Translations under genes and position numbers: made by a program | The notes under the pieces: generated by a model | The model's database searches: none | Seen by the model: only the letters and a program-made list of their open reading frames with translations | What the model was told of the DNA's origin: nothing | Origin: a virus | Lineage: Duplodnaviria; Caudoviricetes | Virus record (IMG/VR): IMGVR_UViG_3300020477_000013 | Location: 64,001-128,000 of that record | Length of the DNA: 64,000 nucleotides | Direction: 5' to 3' (one strand) | Shown: piece after piece, positions 2,939 to 61,036 of the stretch | Layout: every line of letters starts with the position of its first letter | Position numbering within the stretch: the first letter of the stretch is position 1

Positions 2939-3526
2939 ATGGTCATTGAGTCAGTAATTAGAAACTATGTCAGGGGGTTGCTTTTAGAGAAAGAAGAAGA
3001 AGAGCCACCTACCACAACGGGTCCAGGCCCAGGTCGGTTTAAAAAAGAGCTTAAAGACCTTAAGGCTTTAGCGGATGTTGATCCTGCGAAGCTTATGTCG
3101 AACCTTAATATCTCCGACCCTGGAGGTGATACGGAAGAAGCTTCACTAGAGTCGATACTCAAGAGTGCGGTAGGGGGAACATCAGAGATGAAGGCAGCAT
3201 ATGGATCTCCATCTAAAAAGTCTGACAGTGCCGACCGCATCGGGTATTCGATACCTGTAACAGGCGAAGGAATGTCACCACGTGATGGGCTAGTTTTCAT
3301 AAGGGAGGCATTTAAGGGAGCAAAATCTGTAGGTTATTGGACATGGGATAAAGATATACAGATTGAGCTATTAGGGGGAGATATCTTGGCATATGTTTCT
3401 GAGAGCCCCTTTACGTGGAATAAGGCAAAAAAGGCAAAAAAGGCAAAAAAGGATGATAAGCCTGGTGCTGAGAAAGATAACAAACCTGATGCTGAGAAAG
3501 ATAACAAGCCTGACGAACAAGCATGA
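2939..3526 (+). CDS. Leader-tagged hypothetical protein (putative virion/internal head protein)
   Basis: N-terminus ESVIRNYVRGLLLE; charged repetitive C-terminus. Confidence 0.75.
   Translation: MVIESVIRNYVRGLLLEKEEEEPPTTTGPGPGRFKKELKDLKALADVDPAKLMSNLNISDPGGDTEEASLESILKSAVGGTSEMKAAYGSPSKKSDSADRIGYSIPVTGEGMSPRDGLVFIREAFKGAKSVGYWTWDKDIQIELLGGDILAYVSESPFTWNKAKKAKKAKKDDKPGAEKDNKPDAEKDNKPDEQA
3422..3514 (+). repeat. Coding tandem repeats: 3x AAGGCAAAA, then about 2.6x of a 24-nt unit (DNKPDAEK)
   Basis: Read directly: 3422-3448 and 3452-3514. Confidence 0.9.
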
Positions 3527-3560
3527 TGAAACAAAAAAGAGAAAAAGAGGTACGCAGCTG

Positions 3561-3597
3561 ATAATTAATTGAACATATATTGACATGGGATTATTTT
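3561..3597 (+). promoter_or_regulatory. Adjacent class L (ATAATTAA 3561-3568) and class E (TGAACA-N16-TATTTT 3570-3597) motifs
   Basis: Both motifs lie in the intergenic gap before the lipoprotein gene. Confidence 0.5.
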
Positions 3598-3602
3598 TTC
3601 TT

Positions 3603-4031
3603 ATGAAGAAAAGTTTGATTTTATCATTTGTACTATTGTTTGTTGCTTGTGGGGTTCCTAGAAAAGTAGAGGAGCCTCCCATAGATCCATATCAACACTT
3701 AACCTCAACTTCAGTGCTAGAACACTGCGATCCTCCAACGGAGAATTATATGTTTCCTATATTTGGAGACATGTATTTTATAACGAGGCATAAAAACTGT
3801 GGTGGTGTTGATGATATGTTGATCACCCACTTTAGCCCAGAGATTTCAGATCTTCAGGAGACTGCTGTAAAGTTACTAGTTATATTGTATACTAGGCAAC
3901 CAGATGAAAATCTGGAATATGAGCATATCAAGACTTATGTTGGGACAGGTGCTGAGCCACACTCAATATTCTATAGGTTGATAAATAAAGACCCGGTTAC
4001 GAAAGAGGTACCACAAGATGTCATCCAATGA
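3603..4031 (+). CDS. Putative lipoprotein
   Basis: MKKSLILSFVLLFVAC: basic N-region, hydrophobic core, lipobox-like VAC. Confidence 0.65.
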   Translation: MKKSLILSFVLLFVACGVPRKVEEPPIDPYQHLTSTSVLEHCDPPTENYMFPIFGDMYFITRHKNCGGVDDMLITHFSPEISDLQETAVKLLVILYTRQPDENLEYEHIKTYVGTGAEPHSIFYRLINKDPVTKEVPQDVIQ

Positions 4032-4602
4032 TTTTGATACTGTTAAAAAGAACTGGGAAAAGTTTGAGAAATACTGCAAGAGATTAAGTGATCCCCATAT
4101 TGATGAATTGCTTGATACATTAGGGGAGAGGCTAGTGATGTGTCCTGCATCTCCTCGAAAAGATCAATATGGGTGTTACCCTGGGGGACTAGTTGAGCAT
4201 GCAATGGAGGTTACCTCATTAATGAGGTCTCTATGTGATGTATATGGCACCGATATTCAGCTAGCGTCAATTATTAAGGTCGGTTTGTTACATGAGATAG
4301 GAAAGGTTGGTGACTTAACGACGCCATATTTTGTAGACCAAGATTCAGATTGGCACAGGGAGAAGTTAGGGCAGTTATATAAATATAGCGATGATATAAA
4401 CAAAATGTCCGCCTCACACCGAACACTGTTCCTGTTGCAACATTTCGGGGTTATACTAACTCAAGATGAGTGGCTAGCTATCCAGCTAGCATCTGGTTCT
4501 CACTTTGAAGAGAATAGATTTTACGTGGGGCATGAGCCTTCTCTTGCTTTTATTCTACAACAATCTAAGCAGGCAGTTATTCATAAGGCTAATATGGCCT
4601 AG
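4018..4602 (+). CDS. HD-domain phosphohydrolase/nuclease (YhaM-like, HE variant)
   Basis: YPGGLVEHAMEV ... GLLHEIGK ... H(R) pattern. Confidence 0.75.
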   Translation: MSSNDFDTVKKNWEKFEKYCKRLSDPHIDELLDTLGERLVMCPASPRKDQYGCYPGGLVEHAMEVTSLMRSLCDVYGTDIQLASIIKVGLLHEIGKVGDLTTPYFVDQDSDWHREKLGQLYKYSDDINKMSASHRTLFLLQHFGVILTQDEWLAIQLASGSHFEENRFYVGHEPSLAFILQQSKQAVIHKANMA

Positions 4603-4607
4603 GCTGC

Positions 4608-4615
4608 ATACTTAT
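4608..4615 (+). promoter_or_regulatory. Putative late promoter (class L)
   Basis: ATACTTAT 5 nt upstream of the tagged gene at 4621. Confidence 0.45.
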
Positions 4616-4620
4616 AGAAT

Positions 4621-5025
4621 ATGAATATTTTACGAAGATATATTCGTCAAATTCTGCTAGAGGGCTTAGGGACCGTCAACGTTCCAGACGTGGGTAAAAC
4701 GTCTGTGAAAGATTATAAGTCTTCGATGGATTCATCACTAGCAGCAGGAAAACCAGGTATCAAGCAGGTTACATCGCCAGCCGTCGAAGATAACGGCGAT
4801 AAAGAAAATTTGCTAACCGAGCCAGATGAAATAGAGGATGGTGATAGCCAAGAAGAGGTTAACGCTATTTCTACGGGTGGCGCAGCCATGGCATCTTCCG
4901 GTGCAATTCGAGGTGTTACTACACCCCTAGGGACGGATTCAACTTATCCTTCAAAGAAGAAGAAGAAGAAAAAGAAAGCCTCGAAGAAAGGCGATTCGAA
5001 TTGGTACAAGGCTACCACAAATTAA
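4621..5025 (+). CDS. Leader-tagged hypothetical protein with poly-Lys C-terminus
   Basis: MNILRRYIRQILLEG; KKKKKKKKASKK. Confidence 0.75.
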   Translation: MNILRRYIRQILLEGLGTVNVPDVGKTSVKDYKSSMDSSLAAGKPGIKQVTSPAVEDNGDKENLLTEPDEIEDGDSQEEVNAISTGGAAMASSGAIRGVTTPLGTDSTYPSKKKKKKKKASKKGDSNWYKATTN

Positions 5026-5027
5026 CT

Positions 5028-5901: not shown

Positions 5902-5924
5902 GCAAAATACATACCTCAATCTAT

Positions 5925-14329: not shown

Positions 14330-17300
14330 GTGAGTTCAGAATTTGCTAGTCTCATAAGAAAATATATTGCAGAAGCCAATGATTATTCATGGGATGTTTC
14401 TAACCGCAAAAATATGTTGCTAGATCAACCTGGGATGGAGCAGGAAGATAAGGATAACACTGAGGAGTACCTAAAGTCAATGGGCTTGATGGAAAATATC
14501 ATCGCTCTTTACTTAAGGGGTATTTTAAGTGAGAAAGAACTACGCGGCCAAAAGAGCAAGCGTACACTCTACCACATTGGCAAACGACCAGCAGAGCCGA
14601 AGCCTGCTGAGCGCTGGGGTGCAAAAGGTGAGGAGGGCTGGTCTAGAGACTGGATAGAGGGCCCTGTTAAGTCTGGAGTTTTTTTAACACCCAATCCAAC
14701 AGATATTGCCTGGAATCACGGCGTCAGCGGCAATGTGTATGCCTATAAGGTTCCACAATGGGTTATTGAAAAATCAGGAGGTGTGAACCGTTTTGATACA
14801 GGCTCAGAGATCCTCATATCACAAGAGATATGGGAAGAGGCTGGGGATGAGATAGAATTCTTAGGCAAGACTATGGGCAAAGATGAGTTATGGGACTCGG
14901 TTGACTCGTCTTATTACAGCTCGAAGCAAAAGAAGGGTGTACGTGGCGCACACAAGCATGATGACGGTGCATCTAGCATCTCAGGGCTTAGATCAACCAA
15001 CCACCCCGAAGCTGCGATCAAGATGATGTCTCAAGAAGAGATCGAGAAAGCCCTAGCAAAATTTGAAAATGAGTACGCACAGGAGGGCCCTGCGGAGGTG
15101 GTCAAGGGCCCGCGAGATAAAAAAGGGCTCGTCATCCCCTACCTTGGCAAGCAACCAAGGGGTAAAGACAAAGAGCTTATTGATCTTCTCAACAAGTACA
15201 TGAAGGAGTCGGTTGTTCGACAGTATATAAAGGATCTGCTTGTAGAGGTCCCACTTGATGACTTTGAGTATGTTTCCAAAGACCACGACGATGTAATGGT
15301 CCGAGAAGAGGTTGCTGATTATTTCAAAGCGATACCACAGAGTGTCAACATCTACGTCGCACATACAGACGATCTTAGCTGGGCACATAGGCTGCCAAAC
15401 GAAATACAGGGCAAGGTATCCGGATTTAAAAGTCGAGGCCAGGTCACCCTTACTGATATTTCAAACATCGGAGAGCTATATCCTCAGATACAGAGGGCTA
15501 TGCACCCAGAAGGAATCAATCTTCTCTACGTCTACCCTAAATCTTTTGAAGTTCCTGCCGGCGGTGATACATTCATTGCTGATGTCAACCCCCACTATTT
15601 GGCTCACGATCTTCATCACATGCTTGAGAATGCCCCCGGCCGTGAAAGAGGAGAAAAAGACAAATTCACTTCTCTTATAAAAGAGTATCTGATGGAGCTG
15701 GTCTGGCTGTCTCACGGTGGCGGGTCGGTGGAAGCTGAGCAAGTGCGAGATACAATGCGGAGAACCGGCCGGCGTCTTGGGGTTGCAAATACAAACCTCT
15801 TGATGAGTGAACTGTTTCCAGGCATCAAACTACCCAGTGGTGACTTCGATCTATTTGGTGATGTCTTTGCTGACTACCTGAAGAACGATGGAAACTTAGT
15901 CCTCGGCGTTCCAGAGCAGCTCGATTATGATGGCACAGTCATTGAATTGAATCCCGGCTCTAAGCACGATCAACGAGCGCAGCAATACGAAAAGAAATTT
16001 AAAGATCTGTTCAATGCAGTATTGGATCCGCTCAAGGGAAAGGTGGCAATGTTCAACATCTTCGAGGTCGAACACCGCGAAGTAGAGCGTGCAAGGAAAC
16101 AAGCCGAAGAGAAAATGCAAGCTGACCATGGCCAACTCATCGACCACATTAAGTCTATGGGCGGAGAGTTTAAGTACTTCGACGAAAGCCACAGAGAAGA
16201 GGGTGTCGAGGAGTTGATATTTGACACCGGTCTCAAGCCTGAAAAGCCGGTCTATGGGATCGAAGAGTTCACCCAACAATTTCCAGAAGAGGCGGCTGGC
16301 ATTGAGGCTTTGGGCTACAAGATAACGAGTGCCTTTGACGGGTTCGGGGGTAGCTCTGTGGAGATTAGGCTGAAGATGGCAGGCATCAAAGAGAGCGTTT
16401 TAAGAAAATATATAAGGCAACTACTCAAAGAAGACCCCATGGGCTTTGTTCACGACCTAGCAGCCTCGGATAAGTTCGGCGATCAGTTTAGGGGTGGCCA
16501 AGTTGGTAAAGATGCTGGTCGAGATATCAAGCGCGCTTTCAACAAAAACGCAGACCACCAATTTCTCAGCACGCTGGATACAGTTCACTGGTTTTACACT
16601 GTTTACGACTTAGAGCCCTTGGTAGGAAAAGGTAAAGATGAACTTTCTGCAACAATGACGCTCCCCGGAGATAGCTTTGACCCAGCCGGTCTTCCATACG
16701 GGCTATGGATTAAGGGCAGAATAACACTGGCTACTAATGAACAAGATAAGATGTACTCCGGATTTTATGGGGACTATGGCGCCGGCTATGAAGGATCAGA
16801 AGAGGAAGTTGCTCATAGAGACCGGTCTTCTGGCAGAAATAAACGGCCATCTGTATCAAAAGATTACAGTCGATACGGCCAGCTCGAACGCGGAAATGAA
16901 TACATGGAGAAGATGGCAAGAGATGGTATTCCCTATATCTTAGATCAGTCAACATGGAATCCAGGTAAGACCAGGTCTAATAATGAGGCGCTGGTAGATA
17001 ATTGGAGGCCTATAGGGATCATTGTTGCAAAGAACGACGTTATAAAAGCTATTCTCAAAGCAGCCAAGAAACTTGCTGGAGAAGGTGGTACCCCACCGAG
17101 CGGTAATATTGCCAAAGACATTAATTATTTTTCGACTGGTGTGACACAAGAGATCATACTAGCAGCCCTACAGTTGGGCGTTCCGATTTATGACACGAGT
17201 CGAACAAAGCTATGGGGCCCTCCCACACACCAGAGTGGAACACAAAAAGAGCTCCGCCAGTACGTAAGAGGGCAGTTAATTTTAGAAGATCGAATCCTCC

Positions 17301-17644
17301 AAGAAAACGTTTTCAAGAAAGCGATTTCATGGGTAAAAGAAAAAGGGCAAGCAGGTATAGAGGCAACCCGCGAATTTCTCACTGACCTAAAAGAAGAGTT
17401 ATCAGAAACTAGGGAGGGAGCAGCACTTCTTACGAAACTAGCTTCTGGTAAAAATTTGTCGCCAGAAGAAACTGGATTTCTAAAACAGCAAGCTAAAGAT
17501 GTAGCGTCAGGTACAGTCCTACTAGGCTTGTTTGCCCTTCCGGGTGGTGGGTTGGCTACTGCAGCCCTTTTAAAAGTAGCAGGAAAAGTAGGTGTTAACC
17601 TTAAACCTACAGCATTTAGAGGGAATGATGAAACTACTTCATGA
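14330..17644 (+). CDS. Multidomain putative polyprotein with four internal leader-like motifs (ART-like, HDxxH, ART-like and LETM1-like segments)
   Basis: Motifs at 14489, 15200, 16367 and 17243 separate unrelated domains. The GTG at 14330 is preferred as start because it gives SLIRKYIAE. Confidence 0.8.
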   Translation: MSSEFASLIRKYIAEANDYSWDVSNRKNMLLDQPGMEQEDKDNTEEYLKSMGLMENIIALYLRGILSEKELRGQKSKRTLYHIGKRPAEPKPAERWGAKGEEGWSRDWIEGPVKSGVFLTPNPTDIAWNHGVSGNVYAYKVPQWVIEKSGGVNRFDTGSEILISQEIWEEAGDEIEFLGKTMGKDELWDSVDSSYYSSKQKKGVRGAHKHDDGASSISGLRSTNHPEAAIKMMSQEEIEKALAKFENEYAQEGPAEVVKGPRDKKGLVIPYLGKQPRGKDKELIDLLNKYMKESVVRQYIKDLLVEVPLDDFEYVSKDHDDVMVREEVADYFKAIPQSVNIYVAHTDDLSWAHRLPNEIQGKVSGFKSRGQVTLTDISNIGELYPQIQRAMHPEGINLLYVYPKSFEVPAGGDTFIADVNPHYLAHDLHHMLENAPGRERGEKDKFTSLIKEYLMELVWLSHGGGSVEAEQVRDTMRRTGRRLGVANTNLLMSELFPGIKLPSGDFDLFGDVFADYLKNDGNLVLGVPEQLDYDGTVIELNPGSKHDQRAQQYEKKFKDLFNAVLDPLKGKVAMFNIFEVEHREVERARKQAEEKMQADHGQLIDHIKSMGGEFKYFDESHREEGVEELIFDTGLKPEKPVYGIEEFTQQFPEEAAGIEALGYKITSAFDGFGGSSVEIRLKMAGIKESVLRKYIRQLLKEDPMGFVHDLAASDKFGDQFRGGQVGKDAGRDIKRAFNKNADHQFLSTLDTVHWFYTVYDLEPLVGKGKDELSATMTLPGDSFDPAGLPYGLWIKGRITLATNEQDKMYSGFYGDYGAGYEGSEEEVAHRDRSSGRNKRPSVSKDYSRYGQLERGNEYMEKMARDGIPYILDQSTWNPGKTRSNNEALVDNWRPIGIIVAKNDVIKAILKAAKKLAGEGGTPPSGNIAKDINYFSTGVTQEIILAALQLGVPIYDTSRTKLWGPPTHQSGTQKELRQYVRGQLILEDRILQENVFKKAISWVKEKGQAGIEATREFLTDLKEELSETREGAALLTKLASGKNLSPEETGFLKQQAKDVASGTVLLGLFALPGGGLATAALLKVAGKVGVNLKPTAFRGNDETTS

Positions 17645-18422
17645 ATACATAAGGTCGACCCTAATGTCTGAGTCTAGGTTTAAGCAGATATTTAAACCCA
17701 AATTCACAGACTTACGGCAATACTTAGCGGGGTCTTCTTTTTTGGATGCTGACCCTGCCGGTGATCTAGATGAAGACACATGGTCGTCTGAGGCCGCCGT
17801 GGTACTTAGGGACGATTTAAATGATTATTTCGATTCAAAATTTGAGTCTGGTTATTTGACAGCAATTGTGAAGGTTGATATGGGATGGACAGACCCCAAA
17901 GCTGGTAAAGACAGTGTTCTTAAGAATGCGACATATTACTTCAAGGGTGGCCTTCATTTCCTAGAGGTTATGTTAGCAGATATTGATGATGGTTCTGTCA
18001 TAAGGGACATGGGACGCCCTGAGCAAAAGGTTTACGAAGTTATTTTACACGAGCTTTTACACATGCAACAGTTTTTAAGGTTTAGCAAGGGAGAACCCAC
18101 TGATAAAAAGTGGGAACACTTCATGAAAGAGTATCGCCGCCGCGGCGGAGCATCAGGTATGGGTTCAGATTATTTCTTTTTTGACGAACCTGGTGCTGCA
18201 TCTGAACTTGAGACATTTTCGTTGCAAATTGCTATTGAGCTTGTGGATGCTATTGGTCAGGAGGCTGCTGTCGCAATATTAGGGCAACAACCTGATTATG
18301 ACATGATAAGAAGAAATTCCGCATCATTTAGAGATATTGAGAAAGCAGGTAATCTCACATCACGCCCCGAATTTAAAGAGCTGGTTAAAAGGGCGAAGCA
18401 ATACGCGAGGCTATCATCATGA
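17625..18422 (+). CDS. Leader-tagged zincin-like metallopeptidase
   Basis: MMKLLHEYIRSTLMSE; ILHELLHMQQ (HExxH) plus downstream ELETFS. Confidence 0.65.
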   Translation: MMKLLHEYIRSTLMSESRFKQIFKPKFTDLRQYLAGSSFLDADPAGDLDEDTWSSEAAVVLRDDLNDYFDSKFESGYLTAIVKVDMGWTDPKAGKDSVLKNATYYFKGGLHFLEVMLADIDDGSVIRDMGRPEQKVYEVILHELLHMQQFLRFSKGEPTDKKWEHFMKEYRRRGGASGMGSDYFFFDEPGAASELETFSLQIAIELVDAIGQEAAVAILGQQPDYDMIRRNSASFRDIEKAGNLTSRPEFKELVKRAKQYARLSS

Positions 18423-19231
18423 AATTACTACGTGAATACATAAGAACACTGTTAACCGAGCGTAATACGATGAAGCGCCCAACCGTGGGAGCAATTCTAG
18501 ACGCGATAGATGTTGTCCAAGCAGCCGAAGATGAAGAAGCAAAGAAGAAGGCCTTAAAAAAGCTTGAGAAGTCCCTGGGGTGGAAAGTAGCTAAGATGCT
18601 AGCAGGACCATTCGGCGATGCAGTTAGCATTGCAAAAGATGCCGCTGGAGTATATAAGACATTAAAGGATACAAAGAAGGCTCCTGAAAAGATGGATAAC
18701 CCTATCCTGGACTTACTTCAAGTCGATTCAGGTTATAAAAACATGTTAGACGACTCAGTCGAGTTCGAATTTGATAAAGATATGGTAAGTTATTTAAACA
18801 GCTTACCTCGAGAAGCACCACTTCCTGATATGACCGTGGAGCTTGAGAAATGGATACAGAAGAAGTTTAATAGGGGAATTTCTGGTGCTGATGTAACAGA
18901 GGTTATTTTTCGTAAGCATATAGGAAACTTAATTCGAGAAGCGATTGAAAATGAAAGTCAGTTCCGTGAGCTTTTGGAGGCTGGTCATTTTGATCAAGCC
19001 ATAGCCTTGGCAGATTCATTAGGCATCAGTGGAAGAGAACTACCTTGGACTGGTGAGCTCTTAGAAGATTACGTGTATGAGAAACTGAAGAACATTCCAA
19101 TAGATGCGTACGATGATGCCAAATTAGTTTGGCACCAGGCCAAAATTGATGCGCTAAATGTTCTAGATATTAGTCTAGAAGAGTACATGGGGCCTAGTCC
19201 ACTAATGATGTATTACAACTCTAGACGATAG
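18419..19231 (+). CDS. Leader-tagged hypothetical protein with a second internal motif
   Basis: MKLLREYIRTLLTE; internal FRKHIGNLIREAIENE. Confidence 0.75.
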   Translation: MKLLREYIRTLLTERNTMKRPTVGAILDAIDVVQAAEDEEAKKKALKKLEKSLGWKVAKMLAGPFGDAVSIAKDAAGVYKTLKDTKKAPEKMDNPILDLLQVDSGYKNMLDDSVEFEFDKDMVSYLNSLPREAPLPDMTVELEKWIQKKFNRGISGADVTEVIFRKHIGNLIREAIENESQFRELLEAGHFDQAIALADSLGISGRELPWTGELLEDYVYEKLKNIPIDAYDDAKLVWHQAKIDALNVLDISLEEYMGPSPLMMYYNSRR

Positions 19232-19242
19232 AGGGAAATGGT

Positions 19243-19485
19243 ATGAAAATAACAAAGCGACAACTTAAAAATCTTATTCGAGAAGCATTCTGGGACAAGA
19301 AGCCTCCTGCTCCCGCGGCCGGATCGGACAAGTTCATGAACCCCCTGTCAGCAGCGTCGGAGTCCATGAGGGAAGTCATATCAGCTCTATGGGGCCCATG
19401 GGACGATCCTCCCCGGCCTGATTTACTAAAGAAAGCTCAAGCTTTGGCTAAAGAAATTGATGAAGCTTCAAAGGACCAGATATGA
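19243..19485 (+). CDS. Leader-tagged small protein
   Basis: MKITKRQLKNLIREA; RBS GAGGG. Confidence 0.8.
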   Translation: MKITKRQLKNLIREAFWDKKPPAPAAGSDKFMNPLSAASESMREVISALWGPWDDPPRPDLLKKAQALAKEIDEASKDQI

Positions 19486-45450: not shown

Positions 45451-46130
45451 GATTAACCCGCAATATACTTCGTCGTCTTATAAAAGAGGAGCTTAACATA
45501 CTATCAGAACAGGATGACCCCTTTGGCCTTGAGGGCGGAGGCGAAGAAGAAGGCGCAGCAGATGAGGGTGCCGAGACTGAAGGCGAAGAAGAGGGTGGAG
45601 AAGACGCGGAAGGTGCCGAGGGTGAAGGTGAAGACGCAGAAGAGGAAGACGAAGAAGAAGTAGAGGAAATCGAGCCCCTCGGTGATGAAGAGCTTTCTCT
45701 AGCCAAGACCGTCGATGATGAACTAAATTCTGTCTTTATAGATTTCGAGTCAGATGCTATTAAGTCTGCTGATTGGAGCAACAAGAAAGAAGATGAGATG
45801 GCGGTTGATATTAAGGTGAGAGAAAGTGCACGTAGGAAAAAATTATCATTTTTGCTATTTGAGCGGGAAGAAGCTCCCCAGATTGATATGGAGACATTCA
45901 CAGCAGATGTTGCTAGGCTTATAAAGAATTATGATTCCCTCTTGGACATGAAGGCTATTATAATGAAGAAAGCCCAAGATTTTATTTCAAAAAAATATGG
46001 GAAGGAGCAAGTTGAAGAGCTACTTTCAATACTCGAACTACGATATGACCTGACATTAGATATACATCAAGATGAAATAGATCCTCATGCCGTAGGTGCT
46101 AGTCCGACCCAGGCAGAGGGTGGTGCGTAA
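45447..46130 (+). CDS. Leader-tagged highly acidic protein (scaffold/core-like)
   Basis: MRLTRNILRRLIKEE...LSE; E/G-rich tract. Confidence 0.75.
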   Translation: MRLTRNILRRLIKEELNILSEQDDPFGLEGGGEEEGAADEGAETEGEEEGGEDAEGAEGEGEDAEEEDEEEVEEIEPLGDEELSLAKTVDDELNSVFIDFESDAIKSADWSNKKEDEMAVDIKVRESARRKKLSFLLFEREEAPQIDMETFTADVARLIKNYDSLLDMKAIIMKKAQDFISKKYGKEQVEELLSILELRYDLTLDIHQDEIDPHAVGASPTQAEGGA

Positions 46131-47713: not shown

Positions 47714-49384
47714 ATGAAAAAACTAACTTTAAAAGAGCTAAGAAAGCTAATATTGCATGAAGTTAGGTCGCATTCACGAAAGCAGAAACATGTTTCTCTT
47801 GCATCACTTTTGTTTGAAGAAAAAGAAGAAGGTGAAGGAATTCCAAAGTTTACCGTTGTTGCGTTATACGGTCCTCCTGCTGCTGGAAAGGGTGCTGCTA
47901 AGGATTTTGTGAAAGGTAAATTCGGGGGTAACGAGCAAAAATCGACGATAGACGATTACATCTCGTCTCTGCCTTCGGATTCTCAAGATTCCGCGAAAAA
48001 GGATATCAAGGATACTATAGAGGCAGAAGAAGATGCATGGATGACTGGAATTACGACCGGCAGGTTTCCTACCGCAGTTTTTCTAGATCTTCATAACAAG
48101 GCACAGATGGATGCATCTAAGTGGGATGCTGCAGGTGCCGAGTACTGGCATCGAAATGAGACTGACCAGGGGGGTCCTGTCACGGACCTCATAGATGGTA
48201 AGACATATGTCAAGATTATGGAAGAGAATAACGGCGATGTCACATCTGCAGCTGAGCAGTTCTCAAAGTTTCCAGAGACGCAAAGCTGGTTTGCTCAAGC
48301 CAGGGGTTTTTCTAAGGCACCTCCCGGCATGGAAGATTTAGAACAATACATGGGCTCAGAGATGGTTGACGGTAAGGAGCGAACACTTAAAATTCGCAAT
48401 GCCGCTGCAGATGATTACATCGGCAAGGTGGAAGCCTCTATCGAATCGATGATGGGTGATGCAAAGAAATATGGCTCTTTATTTTTAGCCGACCAGGCTG
48501 GCGAAAGTACTACGAATTTAGAGCGCATCGGCGCATTAGGAAAATTACGTGACAAGGGTGTGAGGGTCATAGGCGTCTATATCCACCAGCCCAAAGAAAG
48601 AACGACAATAGCAAATCTTCATAGAAAGTCGATGGATAGAGGCGGCCGCCGTGTCGCCCAATCGGAGGTCGATGCGATCGCTGATGCTGGGCCCACTATC
48701 GATATTGAGAAAAATGAGATTTCACCCGCCAACCGAGGTAAAGCAATTCAGGCCATGTGGGATAATGACTTTGACGGAATTTACGTCTACCACCCAGGTA
48801 AAGAGTTTGATTACGAACAGCAAGCTCAGGGTGTGACGTCTGGTGGTGATATAGGGGACGTGCCGATTGCATCTTCTATCTGCGAGCCTTTCGGCGACGG
48901 AATGGGCATGTTAGATATTGAGGGATGCGATGATGAAAAAGTACATCCAGGTAAAAGGGGTAAAAAAGTTGGTGCAGGATCCCTTAGGGGTCTCGAGGCA
49001 AAGCTGGCTAAGAAAGCCGGCGTTGGTGATAAAGATGAAACAGGGTACCTACCGGCATTTGAGGATTTAGACTCTGATGATCGCAAAGCAGTCGTTGACG
49101 TTCTCAACAGCAATTATGGATTCTCAGGTGTGACAGATAAGCACTTACAGAGCTATCTGACATTATATGCCCCGGGAGGTGCAAACAGGAGCCCGGGCTA
49201 CGGAAAGAAGAAAGATTTCGGTAATAACCCTTATGCAAAAGATCTTTTTAAAAATATGTCTGCTGACATATCAATACCCATTCGCGAGCCTGATGAAGAC
49301 ACAAAGAAAGAGTGTATTCTTGCAAAGAAGGGTGATGAGCTAATACTGGAAAGATGGCAGAAGCTAGCAGGGATAATAAAATGA
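47714..49384 (+). CDS. Doubly tagged P-loop kinase, zeta-toxin/AAA_33-like
   Basis: MKKLTLKELRKLILHE; GPPAAGKG; VIGVYIHQP..R....N..R....GGRRV; C-terminal ERWQKLAGIIK. Confidence 0.7.
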   Translation: MKKLTLKELRKLILHEVRSHSRKQKHVSLASLLFEEKEEGEGIPKFTVVALYGPPAAGKGAAKDFVKGKFGGNEQKSTIDDYISSLPSDSQDSAKKDIKDTIEAEEDAWMTGITTGRFPTAVFLDLHNKAQMDASKWDAAGAEYWHRNETDQGGPVTDLIDGKTYVKIMEENNGDVTSAAEQFSKFPETQSWFAQARGFSKAPPGMEDLEQYMGSEMVDGKERTLKIRNAAADDYIGKVEASIESMMGDAKKYGSLFLADQAGESTTNLERIGALGKLRDKGVRVIGVYIHQPKERTTIANLHRKSMDRGGRRVAQSEVDAIADAGPTIDIEKNEISPANRGKAIQAMWDNDFDGIYVYHPGKEFDYEQQAQGVTSGGDIGDVPIASSICEPFGDGMGMLDIEGCDDEKVHPGKRGKKVGAGSLRGLEAKLAKKAGVGDKDETGYLPAFEDLDSDDRKAVVDVLNSNYGFSGVTDKHLQSYLTLYAPGGANRSPGYGKKKDFGNNPYAKDLFKNMSADISIPIREPDEDTKKECILAKKGDELILERWQKLAGIIK

Positions 49385-51965: not shown

Positions 51966-52148
51966 ATGAAAAAAGCGTACCAGTTTGATAAATTCATGAA
52001 AGACATCGTTAAGAGAGAGCAAGACAAAAAGCCTGTTATCCATGAAAATGATGAATACGAGGAATCGCTACAGCGCCAGTATCGAAAGCGCTATGCCGAA
52101 AAGTGGCAAAATCGTATCAAGTATAACACTAGGGGAAACCGTGGCTAA
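51966..52148 (+). CDS. Small basic hypothetical protein
   Basis: RBS AGGGGA; overlaps the next gene. Confidence 0.7.
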   Translation: MKKAYQFDKFMKDIVKREQDKKPVIHENDEYEESLQRQYRKRYAEKWQNRIKYNTRGNRG

Positions 52149-52801: not shown

Positions 52802-53074
52802 ATGAAGACTTTGAAATTAAGGGCTGCGATTAGAAATATCATTGATGAGGCAAAACATGATCCTGGCCAGGAGACCCACCTCACTATTACTGGGAAAGTT
52901 GTACCATTCGGATGTAAGACGTGTGTTAATGATTTAGAGCACAGGATCGAAGATGCGAAAGTGAGGAGGGACACATGCCCTCATCGCTCCGACTCAAGGG
53001 AACACTACAATGGGCTGCTCCGTGTTTTACGTAGGGAATTGAGGAGCGCTAGAAAAACCTTCGAGGGATCTTAG
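52802..53074 (+). CDS. Leader-tagged small protein with CxxC / C-x-H motifs
   Basis: LRAAIRNIIDE; CKTC...CPHR...HY. Confidence 0.7.
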   Translation: MKTLKLRAAIRNIIDEAKHDPGQETHLTITGKVVPFGCKTCVNDLEHRIEDAKVRRDTCPHRSDSREHYNGLLRVLRRELRSARKTFEGS

Positions 53075-53132: not shown

Positions 53133-54431
53133 ATGGGAGCCCTAGCAGGTCATCTAAGTCATTTACAAGAGAACCTTGATTTCACCTTTGGCGAACTTAA
53201 GTCGATCCTTTCAAGCATTGTTTCTGGGGATACACCGGTTGTCGAAAAAGTTGATGGCCAAAATATATTCTTTTCTTTTAGCGTCGATCCTACGACAGGT
53301 GCTGTAAGAACTGCAAGAAACAAGGGCGACCTCGCAAAGGGGGGAATGACCCCGGACGAGTTTTCCTCAAAATGGGAAGGTCATCCTGCACAAGATGCAT
53401 TTATGAATGGCTTTAACGCAATCGAGGCCGGCCTGTCCGGCATAGGTGGTTCAACCCTTAAGACAATCTTTACTCCACAAAACGAGGGAGGTAAGAGATT
53501 CATTAATGCGGAGATTGTTTACACCGGGAACCCGAATGTCATCAACTATGGCGGTGATTATATTGTAATGCATAACCTGCAAGAGTTTGATGAAGCAGGA
53601 AAGTTAACTGACATTCAGCTGCAGGGTGGAGATTTTGCCTCTCTAGTGAGTGCTGTTGAATCTGCACAGCAGGATGCTGATGCCAAGGGATGGGCTGTGA
53701 TAGGTCCTCAAGTGGTAGAACTGCAGGACTTGAGTATGTCCGATATTTTAGAGAGTGTCAATGCCGGCATCGATTCCTTGGGCATTTCTGATAGTATGAC
53801 ATTAGGCGACTTCGTAGCAGAAAAACTCCGCATCGGAAAGGTAGGTAATTTGCCTATTTCTGTTAATAAGCAGGAAGACTTAATTCGTAGGATTATTGAA
53901 ATTGGCCAGGGGGTAGAGTCAAAAGACCTCCCTCCGTTAGCCGACATCAAGAAAGGCCTTCCTAAAGATGTACAGAAGCAGATTAGCTCTATGGCCACGC
54001 AGGCAAATGCCATGAAGGTGATTGGGGCTATTCTTGCACCTGTAGAGTTAGTTATCCACAATCTTGCTGTTGAGGTCCTCCGTGGGCTTTCCTCTGCCCT
54101 TTCTGGCGGTCATGATGAAGAGATTTCGCGACTGAAGTCTGAATTAGATACCGCAGTAGAAAAAATTAATTCCGCTAAAGATTCTAAGAGTGATGCTAGG
54201 CGTGAGATGCTAAAGAAGCAATTGGATAAATTAGGTTCTTCTAAAAATATTTCATCTAGTATGGAAGGAATTGTGTTTGAGCATCCACCGGGCAGTAAGT
54301 CGCTTTACAAGCTAACTGGTGCTTTCGCACCCCTAAATCAGATTATCGGTGCCTCTTATCGGATTCCAAAGGTTCAGAATGAATCTCTACTACGTAATTA
54401 TGTAAGGGAATTTATGGGTGGGTTGATGTGA
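53133..54431 (+). CDS. ATP-dependent ligase / nucleotidyltransferase-like protein (KxDG) with C-terminal tag
   Basis: VEKVDGQN; RNKG; NAEIV; EGIVF; YKLTG; C-terminal NESLLRNYVREF; RBS AAGGAG. Confidence 0.7.
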   Translation: MGALAGHLSHLQENLDFTFGELKSILSSIVSGDTPVVEKVDGQNIFFSFSVDPTTGAVRTARNKGDLAKGGMTPDEFSSKWEGHPAQDAFMNGFNAIEAGLSGIGGSTLKTIFTPQNEGGKRFINAEIVYTGNPNVINYGGDYIVMHNLQEFDEAGKLTDIQLQGGDFASLVSAVESAQQDADAKGWAVIGPQVVELQDLSMSDILESVNAGIDSLGISDSMTLGDFVAEKLRIGKVGNLPISVNKQEDLIRRIIEIGQGVESKDLPPLADIKKGLPKDVQKQISSMATQANAMKVIGAILAPVELVIHNLAVEVLRGLSSALSGGHDEEISRLKSELDTAVEKINSAKDSKSDARREMLKKQLDKLGSSKNISSSMEGIVFEHPPGSKSLYKLTGAFAPLNQIIGASYRIPKVQNESLLRNYVREFMGGLM

Positions 54432-56449
54432 GTGACCAATTAATACGAGAGTGGATTCGCCTTGTGCTGGCAGAAGGCCATGGCTTGCTGCAAGAGGCCG
54501 GCCTTACTGGATCTGAATTTAATAAGCCTGCTATTATTTACCCCACCACTGGTAAGATTGTCCGCCCTGAACGATTCAAGGTTTTCAAGTGGAAGATAAC
54601 GGGACAGCCGCTAGACAAGAAAGAGCTAGAATTTGCTGAAAGTATCGGATATGAATTCCCTCTAGAGAACGCATTTGTTATTAATAGTACCCAACTATTA
54701 GAGGCTGACCCTGATCTTGCTGATCCAAATAATCGAGAGAGCTCTTGGGTGACCAAGGTAGAAATAGTCGAAGATAAAAACAGCGAACTTCTAGCTGCAC
54801 TAGAAGCAGAAGATAGTAGCGCATACAACGCAGCCCTTAAAAATGGTGTTACAGTCAGGCCTATTGACACCCCCCCACCTGGTGTTACGTCATCGACCGG
54901 CCAGGTTCCTGGGCTAGATAAAGACGGTAATTTTGTGATTAATAGTGGTGCGTTGTTTCTAAAGACTAAAGAGTTTAGCCCTAGGGGCGGCTCTACTGGT
55001 AAAAGGATTAGCCTGGGTGTCTTAAGCGAACTTGGCCTTGAAGATGCAGTTAACCAACTAGCATCATCCGAGAAGCCTATGCCACTAGCAATAGTAAATG
55101 AAGGATCTTCAGGCCTTAAACGCTTTCCTTCCACCGGATGGCTTTGGGTTACCGGTGCAACTCAGGCAGGTTCTTCGAAAGTAGCTGGTCAGGTCTCTAA
55201 GTCGGATATCAATTTTGACCTTGCAACGGGGGGTACTCTAGGGATAAGTTTGAAACTACCGTCTGCAGAGAACTGGCTATCTGCTGACACATTAACAGAG
55301 AAGTTTCAAACGTACGTTAAAGACATGATCTGTAAAGAAGATTTGTCCAGGGATGGATCTGAACCTTGCAGATGTACAAATGGAATACAAACTGATAAGG
55401 GTGTTGCTAGGATTATAAATGTAGGTGGCATATATTATCCGGTTTTGGATAAGGGTGATCTAGGAGACTGGTGGAAAGCTCCTCTCCCGGCTGATCGTCG
55501 ACCTCCGGCTTCCGGTCCCAATTTTTCTCTACCCTGGCCGGAAGATGAGAGAGTTCAATTAATGGACCATGCCGTTTTTGGACCTTCAGGAAATAAAGTT
55601 GATGTAGTTGTTAGCGGGGAATACTACGCTAATCCTGCTGCTGATGAATGGGGTAAAGGGGAAGGAAAGTACCCGAATATTTACGTTTCTGAAGAAAGAA
55701 TGCCCATCTCAAAAATTTCCCCTGAAGCATTGAAGGCTTTAACGAGTGAGGGTGCTCAAGTCGCTGATGATCACATTGAACTTGACGCAATCATTATTAG
55801 TGGCGAGGCTTTTACTACTATTGACGAGCTAACAGCTAAGATGATGCCTGTGGCAATATTACGTAGAGAAGGCACCCGAGGCCTCAAGTGGGGAACTGAA
55901 CTTGATGGTACTATTCTCGCGACAAAGGGACTGAGGCTAAGTTTTGTGATGGCATCTCGTGTTTCCGGTGCAACAGCCGAATTATCAGGTGCTTCGGTTG
56001 ATCTTTCACCTTGTCCTGTGGCGACAGACCCCGTTCCCGGTGAGGATTCAGATAGGTATTTGCCAATGAAGCTTGGAGAGAGGTTGCTAAGAAAGCTTGT
56101 TCGTGAGTCTTTAATTCTAGAAGAGCTTACCAAATCGGACAAGAAAGAGATTGAAAAGATTGCTAGAAAGCAAATTGCCAAGGACATGTTGGCCAAGAAA
56201 GAAATAGAGAAGATAGCAAAGAAGCAAGTAGAAGACGGGATCAAGAAAGCATTAGGCGTTTCATTTTTAGGGACAAAGGGTGACATTAATAAGTTTGTGT
56301 CTGATGTTACGAAAGACCACGCAGATAAGTGGCTTACAGATAAGTCTACTAAAGATGAAATAGCAGATATCACTAAGGCAGTGATGAAAAAATTGTATAA
56401 GGATTTGTCGTTCACATATCCGAATTTAATAGATAGGATTAAGGTATAG
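54428..56449 (+). CDS. Leader-tagged PD-(D/E)xK nuclease-like protein with a motif-delimited C-terminal helical module
   Basis: DQLIREWIRLVLAE; KSDINF...GISLK; internal RLLRKLVRESLILEE. Confidence 0.6.
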   Translation: MSDQLIREWIRLVLAEGHGLLQEAGLTGSEFNKPAIIYPTTGKIVRPERFKVFKWKITGQPLDKKELEFAESIGYEFPLENAFVINSTQLLEADPDLADPNNRESSWVTKVEIVEDKNSELLAALEAEDSSAYNAALKNGVTVRPIDTPPPGVTSSTGQVPGLDKDGNFVINSGALFLKTKEFSPRGGSTGKRISLGVLSELGLEDAVNQLASSEKPMPLAIVNEGSSGLKRFPSTGWLWVTGATQAGSSKVAGQVSKSDINFDLATGGTLGISLKLPSAENWLSADTLTEKFQTYVKDMICKEDLSRDGSEPCRCTNGIQTDKGVARIINVGGIYYPVLDKGDLGDWWKAPLPADRRPPASGPNFSLPWPEDERVQLMDHAVFGPSGNKVDVVVSGEYYANPAADEWGKGEGKYPNIYVSEERMPISKISPEALKALTSEGAQVADDHIELDAIIISGEAFTTIDELTAKMMPVAILRREGTRGLKWGTELDGTILATKGLRLSFVMASRVSGATAELSGASVDLSPCPVATDPVPGEDSDRYLPMKLGERLLRKLVRESLILEELTKSDKKEIEKIARKQIAKDMLAKKEIEKIAKKQVEDGIKKALGVSFLGTKGDINKFVSDVTKDHADKWLTDKSTKDEIADITKAVMKKLYKDLSFTYPNLIDRIKV

Positions 56450-56451: not shown

Positions 56452-56790
56452 ATGAAAATTACAAAGAAAGAACTAAGAAGAATTATCAAGGAAGAAAAAC
56501 AGGGGCTTTTAAGAGAGGCATGGATGGCTAACTCTGGAGGTTCATTTAGCCCGATGGCGTCACGTGCTGATTCTGAGTTTGCTGAGATGATTAGGGAAGC
56601 CGGCCCAGGCAGCGCTGTAGGTGACTACCCAAGAGACGAAAGGGACTGGGTCGAGATGTTAGGACAATTAATTGACCAAGATCTGACGTCTCGTGGTGTA
56701 TGGTATGAAGATGAAGGTGCAGCAGTGATGAGGGCACTTGAGAGCCTCAGGCTCCAGATTAGTGACAGTATGAGAGGCCCCACACGATGA
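56452..56790 (+). CDS. Leader-tagged small protein
   Basis: MKITKKELRRIIKEE...LLRE. Confidence 0.8.
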   Translation: MKITKKELRRIIKEEKQGLLREAWMANSGGSFSPMASRADSEFAEMIREAGPGSAVGDYPRDERDWVEMLGQLIDQDLTSRGVWYEDEGAAVMRALESLRLQISDSMRGPTR

Positions 56791-57986: not shown

Positions 57987-58235
57987 ATGGATGTCGTAAA
58001 GAGGATTGAGAAAGAGTTGGGCACTGCTACCGAACATGGCCTGGGCTTCGATGACTGGATTTCGATGAAGAAATATTTATTGCGTTCAATTCCGTCTCAT
58101 ATGAGAACTAATTTTTCCACTAGGGACCCAAAAACAAAAGCACAACACATGAATGAATTCGAGGTCGGTATCGTGAAAAGCTACGAGGCCTTAACAGGAA
58201 AATCATTGAGGTTACCCCATGTCACAATTAAATGA
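57987..58235 (+). CDS. Hypothetical protein
   Basis: ORF; overlaps the next gene. Confidence 0.65.
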   Translation: MDVVKRIEKELGTATEHGLGFDDWISMKKYLLRSIPSHMRTNFSTRDPKTKAQHMNEFEVGIVKSYEALTGKSLRLPHVTIK

Positions 58236-59502
58236 AGAAAAGGAATTTAGGGAATTCGTACGCAAGATACTTGTCGAGCGTAGTGCCCCATTAACCGAAG
58301 GTCCGCTCCGTGATGCTTTCATAAAACCGTTTGAAGACGTTATCAAGGTCGCAAAAGTTTCGTTAAAAGATATCTTGACAGTTGCAAAATTTAACTGGGA
58401 TATGCTGACTACATTTGACCCAATTAAGATAGCAAATATGCGTAGCAATTTTAAGGAAAGAAGAAAGAAGATTAAAGAGGAATATAAAGAGGTGATGGCC
58501 CCCATTAAAGAGGCTATGGGGCATGAAGACATCAAGTTAGCTGCATTCATGCTGAACCCAGCTGGCTATCTTGCGGGATCACTCGTGAAGTCAGGCGTCA
58601 CTAGTGCTCCTGATGTATTAAATTTCTTTAAAGAAGCCGGCTTCGGAGACCCGACAGAGGGTGAAAAAGATGATTCAGGTGGTAAAATTAAGGACCCGGT
58701 AGGTGTTATTGGTACGGCCTTTAAGGCGCTAAAGAAGCTTTTCTTTATAGAGGGTGCAAGTATTCTTCTACCTGACGGTGTACTTCTTACAGAGCAAGAC
58801 AAGAAGGCCGGTACAGGCCCCGAAGGCGCCGGCTTTGACCCGAAGAGTGCGACTGCAGCAGCGCTGCAAGATCTAGGGGTTTTGGATTGGGTTGAGTCAA
58901 GATCAAAGAGCATGGTGGAAGATGCTAAGTCGGCAAACGAGGAATTTCTTTCTCTTTTTTCTGACAACGTAGATATAATCAATCGCTTAATGACAGCTAA
59001 TTCGTATGAATCTCTCCAGGAAGTTATAGATGATGCGTTGGCTAAAGAATTAGACATCGGAGCTTCCATTGAGGATTGGGGCGACATGGTTAAAGAAGAG
59101 GTCGATAAGCTGCTACAAGATGAAAGTAATAGAGAAGCATTTATTCGGGCCGTTGCGAAGAAGAACGGAAAGGAGATACCGGAGAATGAGCCTATCCCTG
59201 AGGACTTTAAGAATACTCCGGAAGAACAGCTTCGTGAAGAGGCTACAAGCATGATGTTTGCGAACGGTACCGAGCAGCTACGAGAAAAGGCTGAGGAAAT
59301 GAGAGATGTGATGATAGAAAAAATAAAAGAGGAGTTTGAGTCTTATAAGAGCGAATTCTTCGAAGACTATGGTATAGATGACCAGACAGCGAAGGTTATG
59401 AAAGAAACGCCTATCGGTAAAGAATTTTTTAAGCACTTCGAAGAAACAGAGAAGAAGCTAGACACACCTCCCCCAACTGGTACTGCCCCTGTGTCCTCTT
59501 AG
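58219..59502 (+). CDS. Leader-tagged helical acidic protein
   Basis: QLNEEKEFREFVRKILVE...LTE. Confidence 0.75.
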   Translation: MSQLNEEKEFREFVRKILVERSAPLTEGPLRDAFIKPFEDVIKVAKVSLKDILTVAKFNWDMLTTFDPIKIANMRSNFKERRKKIKEEYKEVMAPIKEAMGHEDIKLAAFMLNPAGYLAGSLVKSGVTSAPDVLNFFKEAGFGDPTEGEKDDSGGKIKDPVGVIGTAFKALKKLFFIEGASILLPDGVLLTEQDKKAGTGPEGAGFDPKSATAAALQDLGVLDWVESRSKSMVEDAKSANEEFLSLFSDNVDIINRLMTANSYESLQEVIDDALAKELDIGASIEDWGDMVKEEVDKLLQDESNREAFIRAVAKKNGKEIPENEPIPEDFKNTPEEQLREEATSMMFANGTEQLREKAEEMRDVMIEKIKEEFESYKSEFFEDYGIDDQTAKVMKETPIGKEFFKHFEETEKKLDTPPPTGTAPVSS

Positions 59503-59572
59503 TTCTATTTTTTTTACATCTTGGAATTGTCACTAAATAATATAGAATAAGATTTTTGGGAGATTAGAGGAT

Positions 59573-59953
59573 ATGCCTAAGCAGTGGATACCTGAAATAT
59601 TTTATGAAGACATGGAAGACGGTTTAACTTCGCACATTCCGTTTATCTCAGTCCCTTCCGGCGAAGAAATGCCGAAGCTGTTATACATTTTCGAGTCTAG
59701 GGAGACTGGTGATATGGAGCCTGGTCCTGATGGAGAAGATCTTCCAGTGACAGAGGTGACACTTCACCAGTTTGCAGATATGGAAAAGCTTAAGCTAGGC
59801 TTGACCAGTTATGAATATGACAGGGTGAGAATTACATTAGGTCTAGAACCCCTAGAGTCTGCAGTCGAAAAGGGTAGGAATATTACCTCAGCTGTAAGAG
59901 AAAAGCTGGGGATTGTCGAGGGTAAATTTCCTGAACCTGGTGAACAAGAATAG
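59573..59953 (+). CDS. Hypothetical protein
   Basis: RBS GAGGA. Confidence 0.75.
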   Translation: MPKQWIPEIFYEDMEDGLTSHIPFISVPSGEEMPKLLYIFESRETGDMEPGPDGEDLPVTEVTLHQFADMEKLKLGLTSYEYDRVRITLGLEPLESAVEKGRNITSAVREKLGIVEGKFPEPGEQE

Positions 59954-59962
59954 TGACTTAAG

Positions 59963-59999
59963 TGTAAACCTGCTTGTTTTATGATATAATTCTTATATC
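59963..59999 (+). promoter_or_regulatory. Class E promoter with an overlapping 7-bp palindrome
   Basis: TGTAAA-N16-TATAAT; GATATAA-TTC-TTATATC at 59983-59999. Confidence 0.6.
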
Positions 60000-60026
60000 T
60001 TTAACTACCAAAGAGGATCATTTACA

Positions 60027-60680
60027 ATGAACTATCTGTCACGTGATGCAGCAATGTCTGCTATAAAGAACATGAAGAATTTTCATGATGATATTGTCTT
60101 GCTGTATAAACAGCATGGGATGGACCTACTTGATAATTTGGGCCGTCGAAACATTGTAATGTCCCAGGCTCAAGAGAAGTTTTTTGCTCAAGCGCTAGTT
60201 GACTTGTGCGGTGACGTTGAAGCCGATGGTAAGACAGGCCAGCCTGACATTGTTATTCCCTCTTTGGGTAGGGAGCTTGAGTGCAAGCTCACGACTCGTA
60301 ACAAAGGTGGGGCGATTAGCCTACAGACTGATTTTGAGACGTTAAGCCAGAAGGGTAAGCTGGATTACCTCTATGTTATTGCGGATAGCACCTTTAATAG
60401 ATTTTCTGTATTGCACTTCATCGATCTATGCGTGGATGATTTTAGGCATGTTTCCAATGGGTCTAGAGGTAAAGTAGGAATGAAGAAGCATGAAGGCATG
60501 AAAAAATGCAATGTCTTGCTTGGGAGTGCTGTTTGTATTAATGATATTAATATTTCGAAGTGGAAGGACAGGCTTTTGTCTGCTAAGACGGACTCTCGTA
60601 GAGAAAAAATTAAAGAAAAGATTGAGTATTGGGAGACCACTCCGGGAAAGTATCGCTTCGAATTGGAAGAAGTTTCCTGA
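60027..60680 (+). CDS. PD-(D/E)xK restriction-endonuclease-like nuclease
   Basis: GQPDIVI......ELECKLT. Confidence 0.7.
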   Translation: MNYLSRDAAMSAIKNMKNFHDDIVLLYKQHGMDLLDNLGRRNIVMSQAQEKFFAQALVDLCGDVEADGKTGQPDIVIPSLGRELECKLTTRNKGGAISLQTDFETLSQKGKLDYLYVIADSTFNRFSVLHFIDLCVDDFRHVSNGSRGKVGMKKHEGMKKCNVLLGSAVCINDINISKWKDRLLSAKTDSRREKIKEKIEYWETTPGKYRFELEEVS

Positions 60681-60688
60681 TGAAGACA

Positions 60689-60696
60689 ATATTTAT
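60689..60696 (+). promoter_or_regulatory. Putative late promoter (class L)
   Basis: ATATTTAT 19 nt upstream of 60716. Confidence 0.5.
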
Positions 60697-60715
60697 AAGA
60701 GTTAAGGAGTAACCA

Positions 60716-61036
60716 ATGATTTTCAATGCAGATCGGCTTCAAGTTTTATCGGGAATTAAGAACAACAGTAGTGGGGGAAATTTATTAAATGAGTCTTCTA
60801 CACGTAGTCGAAATCAGCTAGTCGAGCAAAAGATTCGACAGATCATCAGGGAAGAGATTAAGTCTTATCTCAATGAGCGCCAGTCAAAGGCCGCCTCCGT
60901 TGGATTTAAGAAGAATAATCTTACTGCTGCGATGGGCTTCGCCGGGCCCGGCTTCCAACCTAGGAATGAGCCGAACAGGTCTGTATCCAGAGGTCCTGGC
61001 GGTACACTTGGCTTTGGCGGGCCAGGATTTATGTAG
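60716..61036 (+). CDS. Small protein carrying both tag types
   Basis: DRLQVLSGIK...LLNE...LVEQKIRQIIREEI; Gly/Phe-rich tail. Confidence 0.75.
   Translation: MIFNADRLQVLSGIKNNSSGGNLLNESSTRSRNQLVEQKIRQIIREEIKSYLNERQSKAASVGFKKNNLTAAMGFAGPGFQPRNEPNRSVSRGPGGTLGFGGPGFM

Follow-up and report, generated by a model that had tools for sequence, protein, structure and literature searches.

Two dialects of a short N-terminal leader in a marine T4-like jumbo phage: candidate capsid-targeting propeptides on dozens of unrelated proteins

Results

The DNA analysed here, called the window throughout, is a stretch of 64,000 nucleotides from a virus (Duplodnaviria; Caudoviricetes). It comprises bases 64001–128000 of a 201,585-bp linear IMG/VR record (IMGVR_UViG_3300020477_000013, hereafter G000) with a CheckV completeness of 73%. 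Our own rough gene call gave 282 genes on G000, 277 of them on the + strand, and mis-starts a few of the genes that concern us. Besides genes for a DnaE-type polymerase, RecA, a DnaB-type helicase and ribonucleotide reductase, the window carries numerous genes whose products begin with one of two related leader peptides, or dialects. The type A consensus is M-K-I-T-K-R-Q-L-R-R-I-I-K-E and the type B consensus is M-K-L-L-R-E-Y-I-R-x-L-L-x-E.

A first-pass annotation, made from the letters of the window, had proposed that about 25 unrelated proteins share such a leader in two variants. Hidden Markov models (HMMs) built from both types and run on the six-frame translation of the whole G000 record recovered both variants genome-wide, with at least 38 type A and at least 9 type B copies, each beginning exactly at an ATG, GTG or TTG codon. 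N-termini were also scored with an ungapped 14-position position-specific scoring matrix (PSSM), for which 48,040 internal windows of G000 proteins served as the null (99.95th percentile, 6.1 bits; 99.99th, 12.8 bits). By this measure 49 of the 282 G000 N-termini are tagged, where chance would give about 2, and the 49 N-terminal copies compare with about 3 that are truly internal. A search of related jumbo phages found the leaders there as well, on 43 genes in G001, 41 in G002 and 31 in G004. The observation is partly confirmed: its core stands, and the leaders are more numerous than first claimed.

Pooling G000, G001, G002 and G004 gives 110 leaders of type A and 43 of type B. Three type A positions, L8, I12 and E14, are each conserved in 106 of 110 copies; in type B, position 12 is Leu or Ile in 41 of 43 and position 14 is Glu in 36 of 43. 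Information content is about 4 bits at E14, falls to about 1 bit at residues 16–17 and is below 0.5 bit by residue 23, so that the conserved block spans 14 residues from the initiation codon, within the 10–19-residue range of T4-type propeptides. Of the 110 type A copies, 69 have a second hydrophobic-x-Glu motif within residues 16–26. The leader helix has a hydrophobic moment of 0.61–0.67; type A is basic, with a net charge of +4, and type B is not. A tandem array at G000 146524–161168 (L006 524–15168; 18.5 to 33.2 kb beyond the end of the window) comprises more than 30 type A genes. Most of its genes encode 80–130 residues, and the leader is lengthened there to about 22 residues (…E-E-K-A-R-L-L-x-E).

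In the window, all 27 starts put forward in the first-pass annotation translate as written. Sixteen are strong, one is strong if a gap is allowed, seven are weak and three are unsupported. The strong sites score 23–38 bits by PSSM and, like the other tagged window genes given below with start and end, lie on the + strand. Those of type A are 19243–19485 (80 residues, acidic body with an isoelectric point (pI) of 4.9; HMM 32.1 bits), 19482–19772 (96 residues; 30.0 bits), 19769–20035 (88 residues; 32.3 bits), 20035–20382 (115 residues, basic body; 31.2 bits), 23602–24234 (210 residues; 27.4 bits), 45447–46130 (227 residues, very acidic body of pI 4.1; 24.1 bits) and 56452–56790 (112 residues; 26.1 bits). 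The strong type B genes are 4621–5025 (134 residues, leader MNILRRYIRQILLE; HMM 26.5 bits, PSSM 32.6), 17628–18422 (264 residues; HMM 28.1 bits), 18419–19231 (270 residues; HMM 27.4 bits, PSSM 32.3), 20382–20789 (135 residues), 20786–21604 (272 residues; HMM 28.4 bits), 21601–22134 (177 residues; 28.3 bits), 22131–22655 (174 residues; 29.1 bits), which has a G001 ortholog of 59% identity, 22655–23473 (272 residues; 30.6 bits) and 25017–25460 (147 residues; 26.8 bits). The leader at 17628 had been placed at 17625; it is real, but 17625 is one Met codon upstream of the start. The 182-residue product of 28925–29473 belongs to type A only if a two-residue deletion in the leader is allowed (gapped HMM, 18.5 bits).

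The weak sites, at 6–10 bits, lie around or above the 99.95th percentile of the null, and a few of the seven may be false, about two false positives being expected over all N-termini. They are 2939–3526 (195 residues, type B-like tag at residues 4–17; PSSM 7.4 bits, past the 99.95th percentile; unmatched in Pfam and PHROG), 43039–44295 (418 residues; 7.6 bits), 47714–49384 (556 residues, a type A variant with the motif ATATTTA 38 nt upstream; 9.1 bits), the gene at 52141, 52802–53074 (90 residues, a variant with a two-residue insertion; 6.0 bits ungapped), 54428–56449 (673 residues, GTG start, type B-like; 6.3 bits) and 58219–59502 (427 residues, type B-like tag at residues 7–20; 9.6 bits). 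The score gives no support to the leaders proposed at 49881, at 60716 and, ungapped, at the N-terminus of the open reading frame (ORF) starting at 14330, but this ORF has an internal copy of 23 bits, to which we return below.

The claim that core replication and nucleotide-metabolism genes are free of the tag stood up: RecA, DnaB, ribonucleotide reductase and DnaE all lack a leader by PSSM. The functions that had been named for the tagged proteins fared unevenly. DUF192 is firm for the 25017 protein (PF02643, E 9.4e-28). An ADP-ribosyltransferase (ART) superfamily fold is supported for the 20382 protein by its predicted structure. The AlphaFold2 (AF2) model has a mean predicted local distance difference test (pLDDT) score of 81 and presents the leader as a separate low-confidence helix (residues 2–13), joined through an unstructured linker to a confident domain, for which the best Foldseek matches were Tpt1/KptA (E 1.9e-5) and then other ART folds. 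The SprT-like metallopeptidase signal of the 17628 protein (PF10263, E 8e-4) and the GNAT signals at 20786 (PF00583, E 0.015) and 22131 are below the Pfam cut-off, and the kinase, nuclease and SH3 labels found no confirmation. The body of the 19769 protein resembles ribosome modulation factor (RMF). Its metagenomic homologs have an identical leader, with PF04957 (RMF) just below the cut-off, and some carry two tandem leaders. Atlas leads from the 22655 protein to DUF3626/OspC-like families are unverified. PHROGs gave no match for 10 tagged cargoes, and Pfam gave none for most tagged cargoes. An untagged gene encoding a cupin domain (24243–24575; PF07883, 9e-10) lies between tagged genes of the window.

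Synonymous codons vary at the invariant residues, with five codons used for Leu8, five for Arg6 and three for Ile12, and the 24 nt upstream of the leaders are unconserved. By this codon usage, the leader is selected at the protein level. The leaders at 20382 and 21601 have 27 identical nucleotides in common, and recombination or conversion between leaders is therefore probable; such exchange would not account for the whole family. For a test of modularity, the first 16 residues were cut off 90 tagged proteins of G000 and G001 and the remaining bodies were compared by BLASTP. Only 19 pairs were found at E<1e-3, nearly all of them G000–G001 orthologs with 36–75% identity, and 63 of the 90 proteins were singletons. 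Type A proteins have a median total length of 95 residues and acidic bodies (median pI 4.6); type B proteins are longer (median 186 residues). Among metagenomic proteins, the leader peptide is invariant on differing bodies. Conversely, the ART-fold cargo family wears differing tag dialects in distant phages, all of the same length and pattern and all ending in hydrophobic-x-Glu. On a 178-kb marine metagenomic contig, five adjacent unrelated genes have a third dialect and a sixth gene has a type A-like tag.

The ORF at 14330–17644 encodes a polyprotein-like product of 1104 residues with leader-like motifs at residues 1, 54, 289, 687 and 973, the best internal one at nt 16391–16432. Residues 689–899 are paralogous to the stand-alone 22655 protein (35% identity, E 2.7e-25), and the alignment starts at the leader of the latter. 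The internal tags lie at domain borders. Two of them are preceded by (I/M)-K-E|S (the vertical stroke marks the presumed cut), and cuts on both sides would therefore excise the tag. Long ORFs of G001 have similar internal leader copies. The retention of the tag where N-terminal targeting is impossible would fit a role in processing. The type A array, too, includes an ORF (551 residues, G000 153296) in which a second leader occurs in frame, at residue 229.

A T4-type head module is present at G000 25.8–37.6 kb, upstream of the window. It includes a large terminase, a gp20-type portal protein (PF07230, 8e-82), a gp23-type major capsid protein (PF07068, 1e-76) and the gp21-like enzyme that the first-pass annotation had suggested should be sought elsewhere in the genome, an S77-family prohead core protease (Peptidase_S77, G000 30278–30880, PF03420, 2.7e-26) that passes the curated cut-off. 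The protease aligns with the T4 gp21 structure 5jbl at 1.9e-16. It keeps the catalytic His (D-H-P-D) and Ser (I-S-S-R-G) where the crystallised 5jbl chain has Ala at two positions, which we take to be inactivating substitutions. The nearest cultured capsid proteins, those of Flavobacterium phage immuto and Microcystis phage Mel-JY01, are only about 48% identical. Because of this distance and the T4-type head module, the phage is, as judged from its genes, a distant, uncultured, marine T4-like jumbo phage. The relatives compared include three of 281–293 kb, among them the complete 293-kb G001; completeness is 100% for G001, 96% for G002 and 92% for G004. In G001, 176269–180147 (L121) holds two tandem capsid-protein genes, 72–73% identical to the G000 capsid protein.

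Several observations connect the leaders with this head module. The mature N-terminus of T4 gp23 aligns near residues 56–62 of the G000 capsid protein, where residues 58–62 read V-L-R-E|A; V-L-R-E|A/S is found in G001, G004 and G005. The putative capsid maturation site thus has the same protease motif as the leaders, at the T4 cut position. Directly upstream of the capsid gene, in the position of T4 gp22, a gene encodes an acidic protein of 597 residues that starts M-S-K-L-F-K-E-A-I-A-E|A and has several further L/I-x-E motifs. Two genes after the protease gene have tag-like N-termini in six of six genomes (G000–G005). The first starts M-A-K-I-(T/S)-K-x-x-L-K-x-I-V-K-E-C-L-V-E-I-L-x-E in all six; the second has L-L-R-K-I-V-L-E-E-K-R-R-M-Q-E close to its start, and an extra ORF lies between the two in the five relatives. 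When HMMs of these two proteins, made from the five other genomes only, were searched against the G000 six-frame translation, the G000 ortholog ranked first with both and was followed almost exclusively by type A leaders, which made up about 28 of the next 30 matches for the first HMM and about 20 of 24 for the second. The best E-values of these searches were weak (9e-4 and 8e-3). Immediately after the capsid gene of G005 come two genes with type A leaders. An S77 protease was present in all seven of the tag-bearing large records searched. No clear covariation was seen between tag dialect and the N-termini of the head-module proteins in G000, G001, G002 and G004.

The motif ATATTTA[T/A/G] lies 27–46 nt upstream of eight structural genes and also upstream of the window genes at 47714 and 60716 and of the first gene of the large type A array. 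At least one gene that is not structural, at G000 106475, has the motif upstream as well, so that this distribution does no more than suggest that tagged genes may be expressed late, together with the head genes. The T4 late promoter TATAAATA was not enriched in G000, with three copies, none of them upstream of a structural gene.

Among 185,579 species genomes scanned, the type A DNA pattern was found only on four contigs of metagenome-assembled genomes (MAGs) of unrelated taxa, including a 306-kb one. These contigs are probably mis-binned phage DNA and therefore give no clue to the host. One contig with type A leaders, NHDW01000006.1 (L156/L159; 305,838 bp), assigned to the MAG 'Methylococcaceae bacterium TMED69', is probably the complete genome of a phage from this clade, placed among bacterial sequences in error.

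Discussion

We consider it probable that both leaders serve as T4-like propeptides for capsid targeting, and that the tagged proteins are loaded into the capsid and trimmed there. Capsid loading is their most likely fate because both tags end in the cut motif of a T4-type head protease. One can envision that the tagged proteins would be made together with the head proteins and that the amphipathic N-terminal helix of the leader would dock on the prohead core. The S77 serine protease of the gp21 type would then cut after the invariant Glu14, with Ile/Leu12 at P3, and might make a second cut after the next hydrophobic-x-Glu a few residues on, where there is one. The mature cargo would be retained in the head and enter the host with the DNA, and the internal tags of the 1104-residue ORF would be cutting points that free several modules. 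The proposal of a large modular tag system of the T4 type, already made in the first-pass annotation, is thus borne out for the tag, its modularity and the head genes; packaging, cleavage and injection we infer.

In T4, the capsid-targeting sequence (CTS) is MKTYQEFIAE (bioRxiv 10.1101/2021.01.19.427310). It is carried by IPI, IPII, IPIII and Alt and is removed by the prohead protease gp21 (Mullaney & Black 1996, reviewed in PMC9026906, PMC5694885 and PMC3012670). Propeptides of T4 head-internal proteins have 10–19 residues, with targeting residing mainly in residues 4 and 7 and processing in residues 8 and 10 (PMC9026906), and Alt is processed at ITE-6 and LTE-619 (PMC5694885). The internal proteins of T-even phages are a diverse set that counters host defences and has only the CTS in common (PMC3012670). 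The leaders described here are likewise short N-terminal propeptides, by our reading, on unrelated proteins and end in Ile/Leu-x-Glu; they occur with an S77 protease of the gp21 family and with head genes of the gp20 and gp23 types; an ART fold is found in one cargo, as in Alt; and the cargo set turns over fast between relatives, as it does among T-even phages. Type B matches MKTYQEFIAE at M1, K2, the hydrophobic residue 4, E6, the aromatic residue 7 and I8, and then has four extra residues before L-x-E. Because of these matching positions, we regard the present system as probably of the same kind as the T4 CTS. It nevertheless differs from T4 in the length of the tag (14 residues, or about 22 with the second cut motif, compared with 10), in having two dialects in one genome, in the number of tagged genes (about 30–50 per genome compared with a handful), in its many small, acidic cargoes where those of T4 are basic, in its polyproteins with internal tags, and in its carrier, a jumbo phage of about 280 kb with a DnaE-type polymerase. 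In our judgement the balance favours an enlarged form of T4 capsid targeting that uses two dialects.

Another possible relative is the inner-body system of phiKZ, 201phi2-1 and SPN3US, in which inner-body or ejection proteins are processed by an S80 protease (PMC5694885, PMC9026906). There, too, the head holds dozens of internal proteins, some of them in paralog families whose members can have identical N-terminal propeptides (SPN3US gp53/gp54), and multiple cuts are made after Glu within the propeptides. However, those phages have an S80 protease, Ser/Ala/Gly at P3 and propeptides often longer than 100 residues, whereas the present phage combines an S77 protease with Ile/Leu at P3 and a 14-residue propeptide. 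We therefore rejected a phiKZ-type system. Full-text literature searches found no paper with the leader strings or the third dialect, and a topical search returned T4 and phiKZ papers and none describing this system.

Some findings weigh against the capsid-targeting hypothesis. To our knowledge, about 50 cargo species in one head would be without precedent for a T4-type head, and we know of no T4-like phage without an S77 protease, so that its presence is necessary but does not discriminate. The internal proteins of T4 are basic, whereas the bodies of type A proteins are mostly small and acidic, and the ATATTTA motif is not confined to structural genes. The cultured phages immuto, Mel-JY01, Rhodothermus RM378 and Prochlorococcus MED4-213 gave only marginal matches to the leader profiles (E 0.01–0.03), and since these phages, whose capsid proteins are the closest among cultured ones, have no convincing tag, no published experiment transfers to this system. 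A complex prediction for the S77 protease with residues 1–40 of a type A protein scored 0.00, which we take as evidence neither way.

An alternative that we think unlikely, and that is still the most serious of those considered, is that the leader is a shared amphipathic docking or oligomerisation helix, directed at a host target or a phage factor, in a fast-evolving superfamily of effectors that are never packaged. The strongly amphipathic character of the helix and the charge of type A would suit such a role, divergence of paralogs, with conservation left only at the N-terminus, could account for the small acidic bodies, and packaging is itself something that we infer. A docking helix, however, would not lead one to expect conservation that stops abruptly at an invariant Glu with Ile/Leu at P3, a leader that heads clearly unrelated folds (ART, DUF192, RMF-like), two conserved head-module proteins that begin in a tag-like manner, or internal tags at domain borders. 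It is very unlikely that the leader instead marks clients of phage chaperones (DnaK, DnaJ or GroEL-like). With basic residues on either side of a Leu/Ile core, the leader looks like a motif bound by DnaK, and G000 encodes an HSP70 (E 8e-248) and has DnaJ-like and GroEL-like N-termini in its gene list. Type B, on the other hand, is not basic, and HSP70 is confined to G000 and G001; because three tag-bearing genomes, G002 (41 copies), G003 and G004 (31 copies), are without it, a tag for phage DnaK clients is improbable.

Two further scenarios seem to us highly improbable. One is that the conserved element acts as DNA or RNA, in translation initiation, as the border of a recombination cassette or as a promoter, with the peptide a by-product. 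The array genes overlap by ATGA/TGATG, the codons are A-rich, and the 27 nucleotides common to 20382 and 21601 point in the same direction. The synonymous variation at Leu8 and Arg6 nevertheless excludes such an element as the main cause, and the unconserved upstream sequence and the constancy of the peptide on differing metagenomic bodies also speak against it; a DNA-level element may still add to gene shuffling. The other scenario, with hardly any probability in our estimate, is that the leader is recognised by a modifying enzyme, as the leader of a ribosomally synthesised and post-translationally modified peptide (RiPP) is by a radical S-adenosylmethionine (radical-SAM) maturase. The distribution of PF04055 rules against it: the family is absent from the tag-rich G000, G001, G002 and G004 and present only in G003, and no such enzyme lies within or beside the tagged arrays.

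Should the tags be real capsid addresses, as the capsid-targeting hypothesis has it, one short motif would reveal the full injected protein set from sequence alone, a set amounting to roughly one in seven of the 282 called genes. Dozens of hypothetical proteins would become candidate effectors of the first minute of infection, such as anti-defence proteins, ADP-ribosylating enzymes and ribosome silencers. The expression-packaging-processing idea developed for T4 would then cover a natural system of about ten times the size, and the combination of tag and S77 protease would be a rule for mining injected proteins in metagenomes.

A bolder and more doubtful proposal is that, across a marine T4-like jumbo clade of about 280 kb, a two-dialect code loads 30–50 proteins per genome for delivery at infection. 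Equally tentative is the composition that this proposal gives the cargo, namely enzymes with an ART fold and others, proteins resembling RMF, small acidic proteins in their dozens and internally cut polyproteins. One could also speculate that the dialects specify different docking sites or copy numbers and that they differ between phage lineages. If this two-dialect arsenal exists, no larger injected arsenal that can be addressed genetically would be known for a T4-type head.

Additional observations

Chaperone genes of the record include a GroEL-like gene at window positions 62582–64000, which continues past the end of the window, and HSP70/DnaK (E 8e-248) and DnaJ-like genes at G000 131279–133150 and 138235–139281. 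The gene at G000 164433–165899 (L006 18433–19899), for an ATP-dependent phosphoenolpyruvate carboxykinase (PF01293, E 1e-171), is an auxiliary metabolic gene of an unusual kind. Intergenic DNA resembling the 3' ends of tRNA genes occurs at about 133.7, 144.0, 171.6, 175.8 and 189.8 kb of G000. Near the end of the record, at 190381–199122 (L008, L009), about 20 tiny tandem genes encode proteins of 59–78 residues that start M-K-V-G-D-L-V-K; similar starts are also found in the unrelated contig L113.

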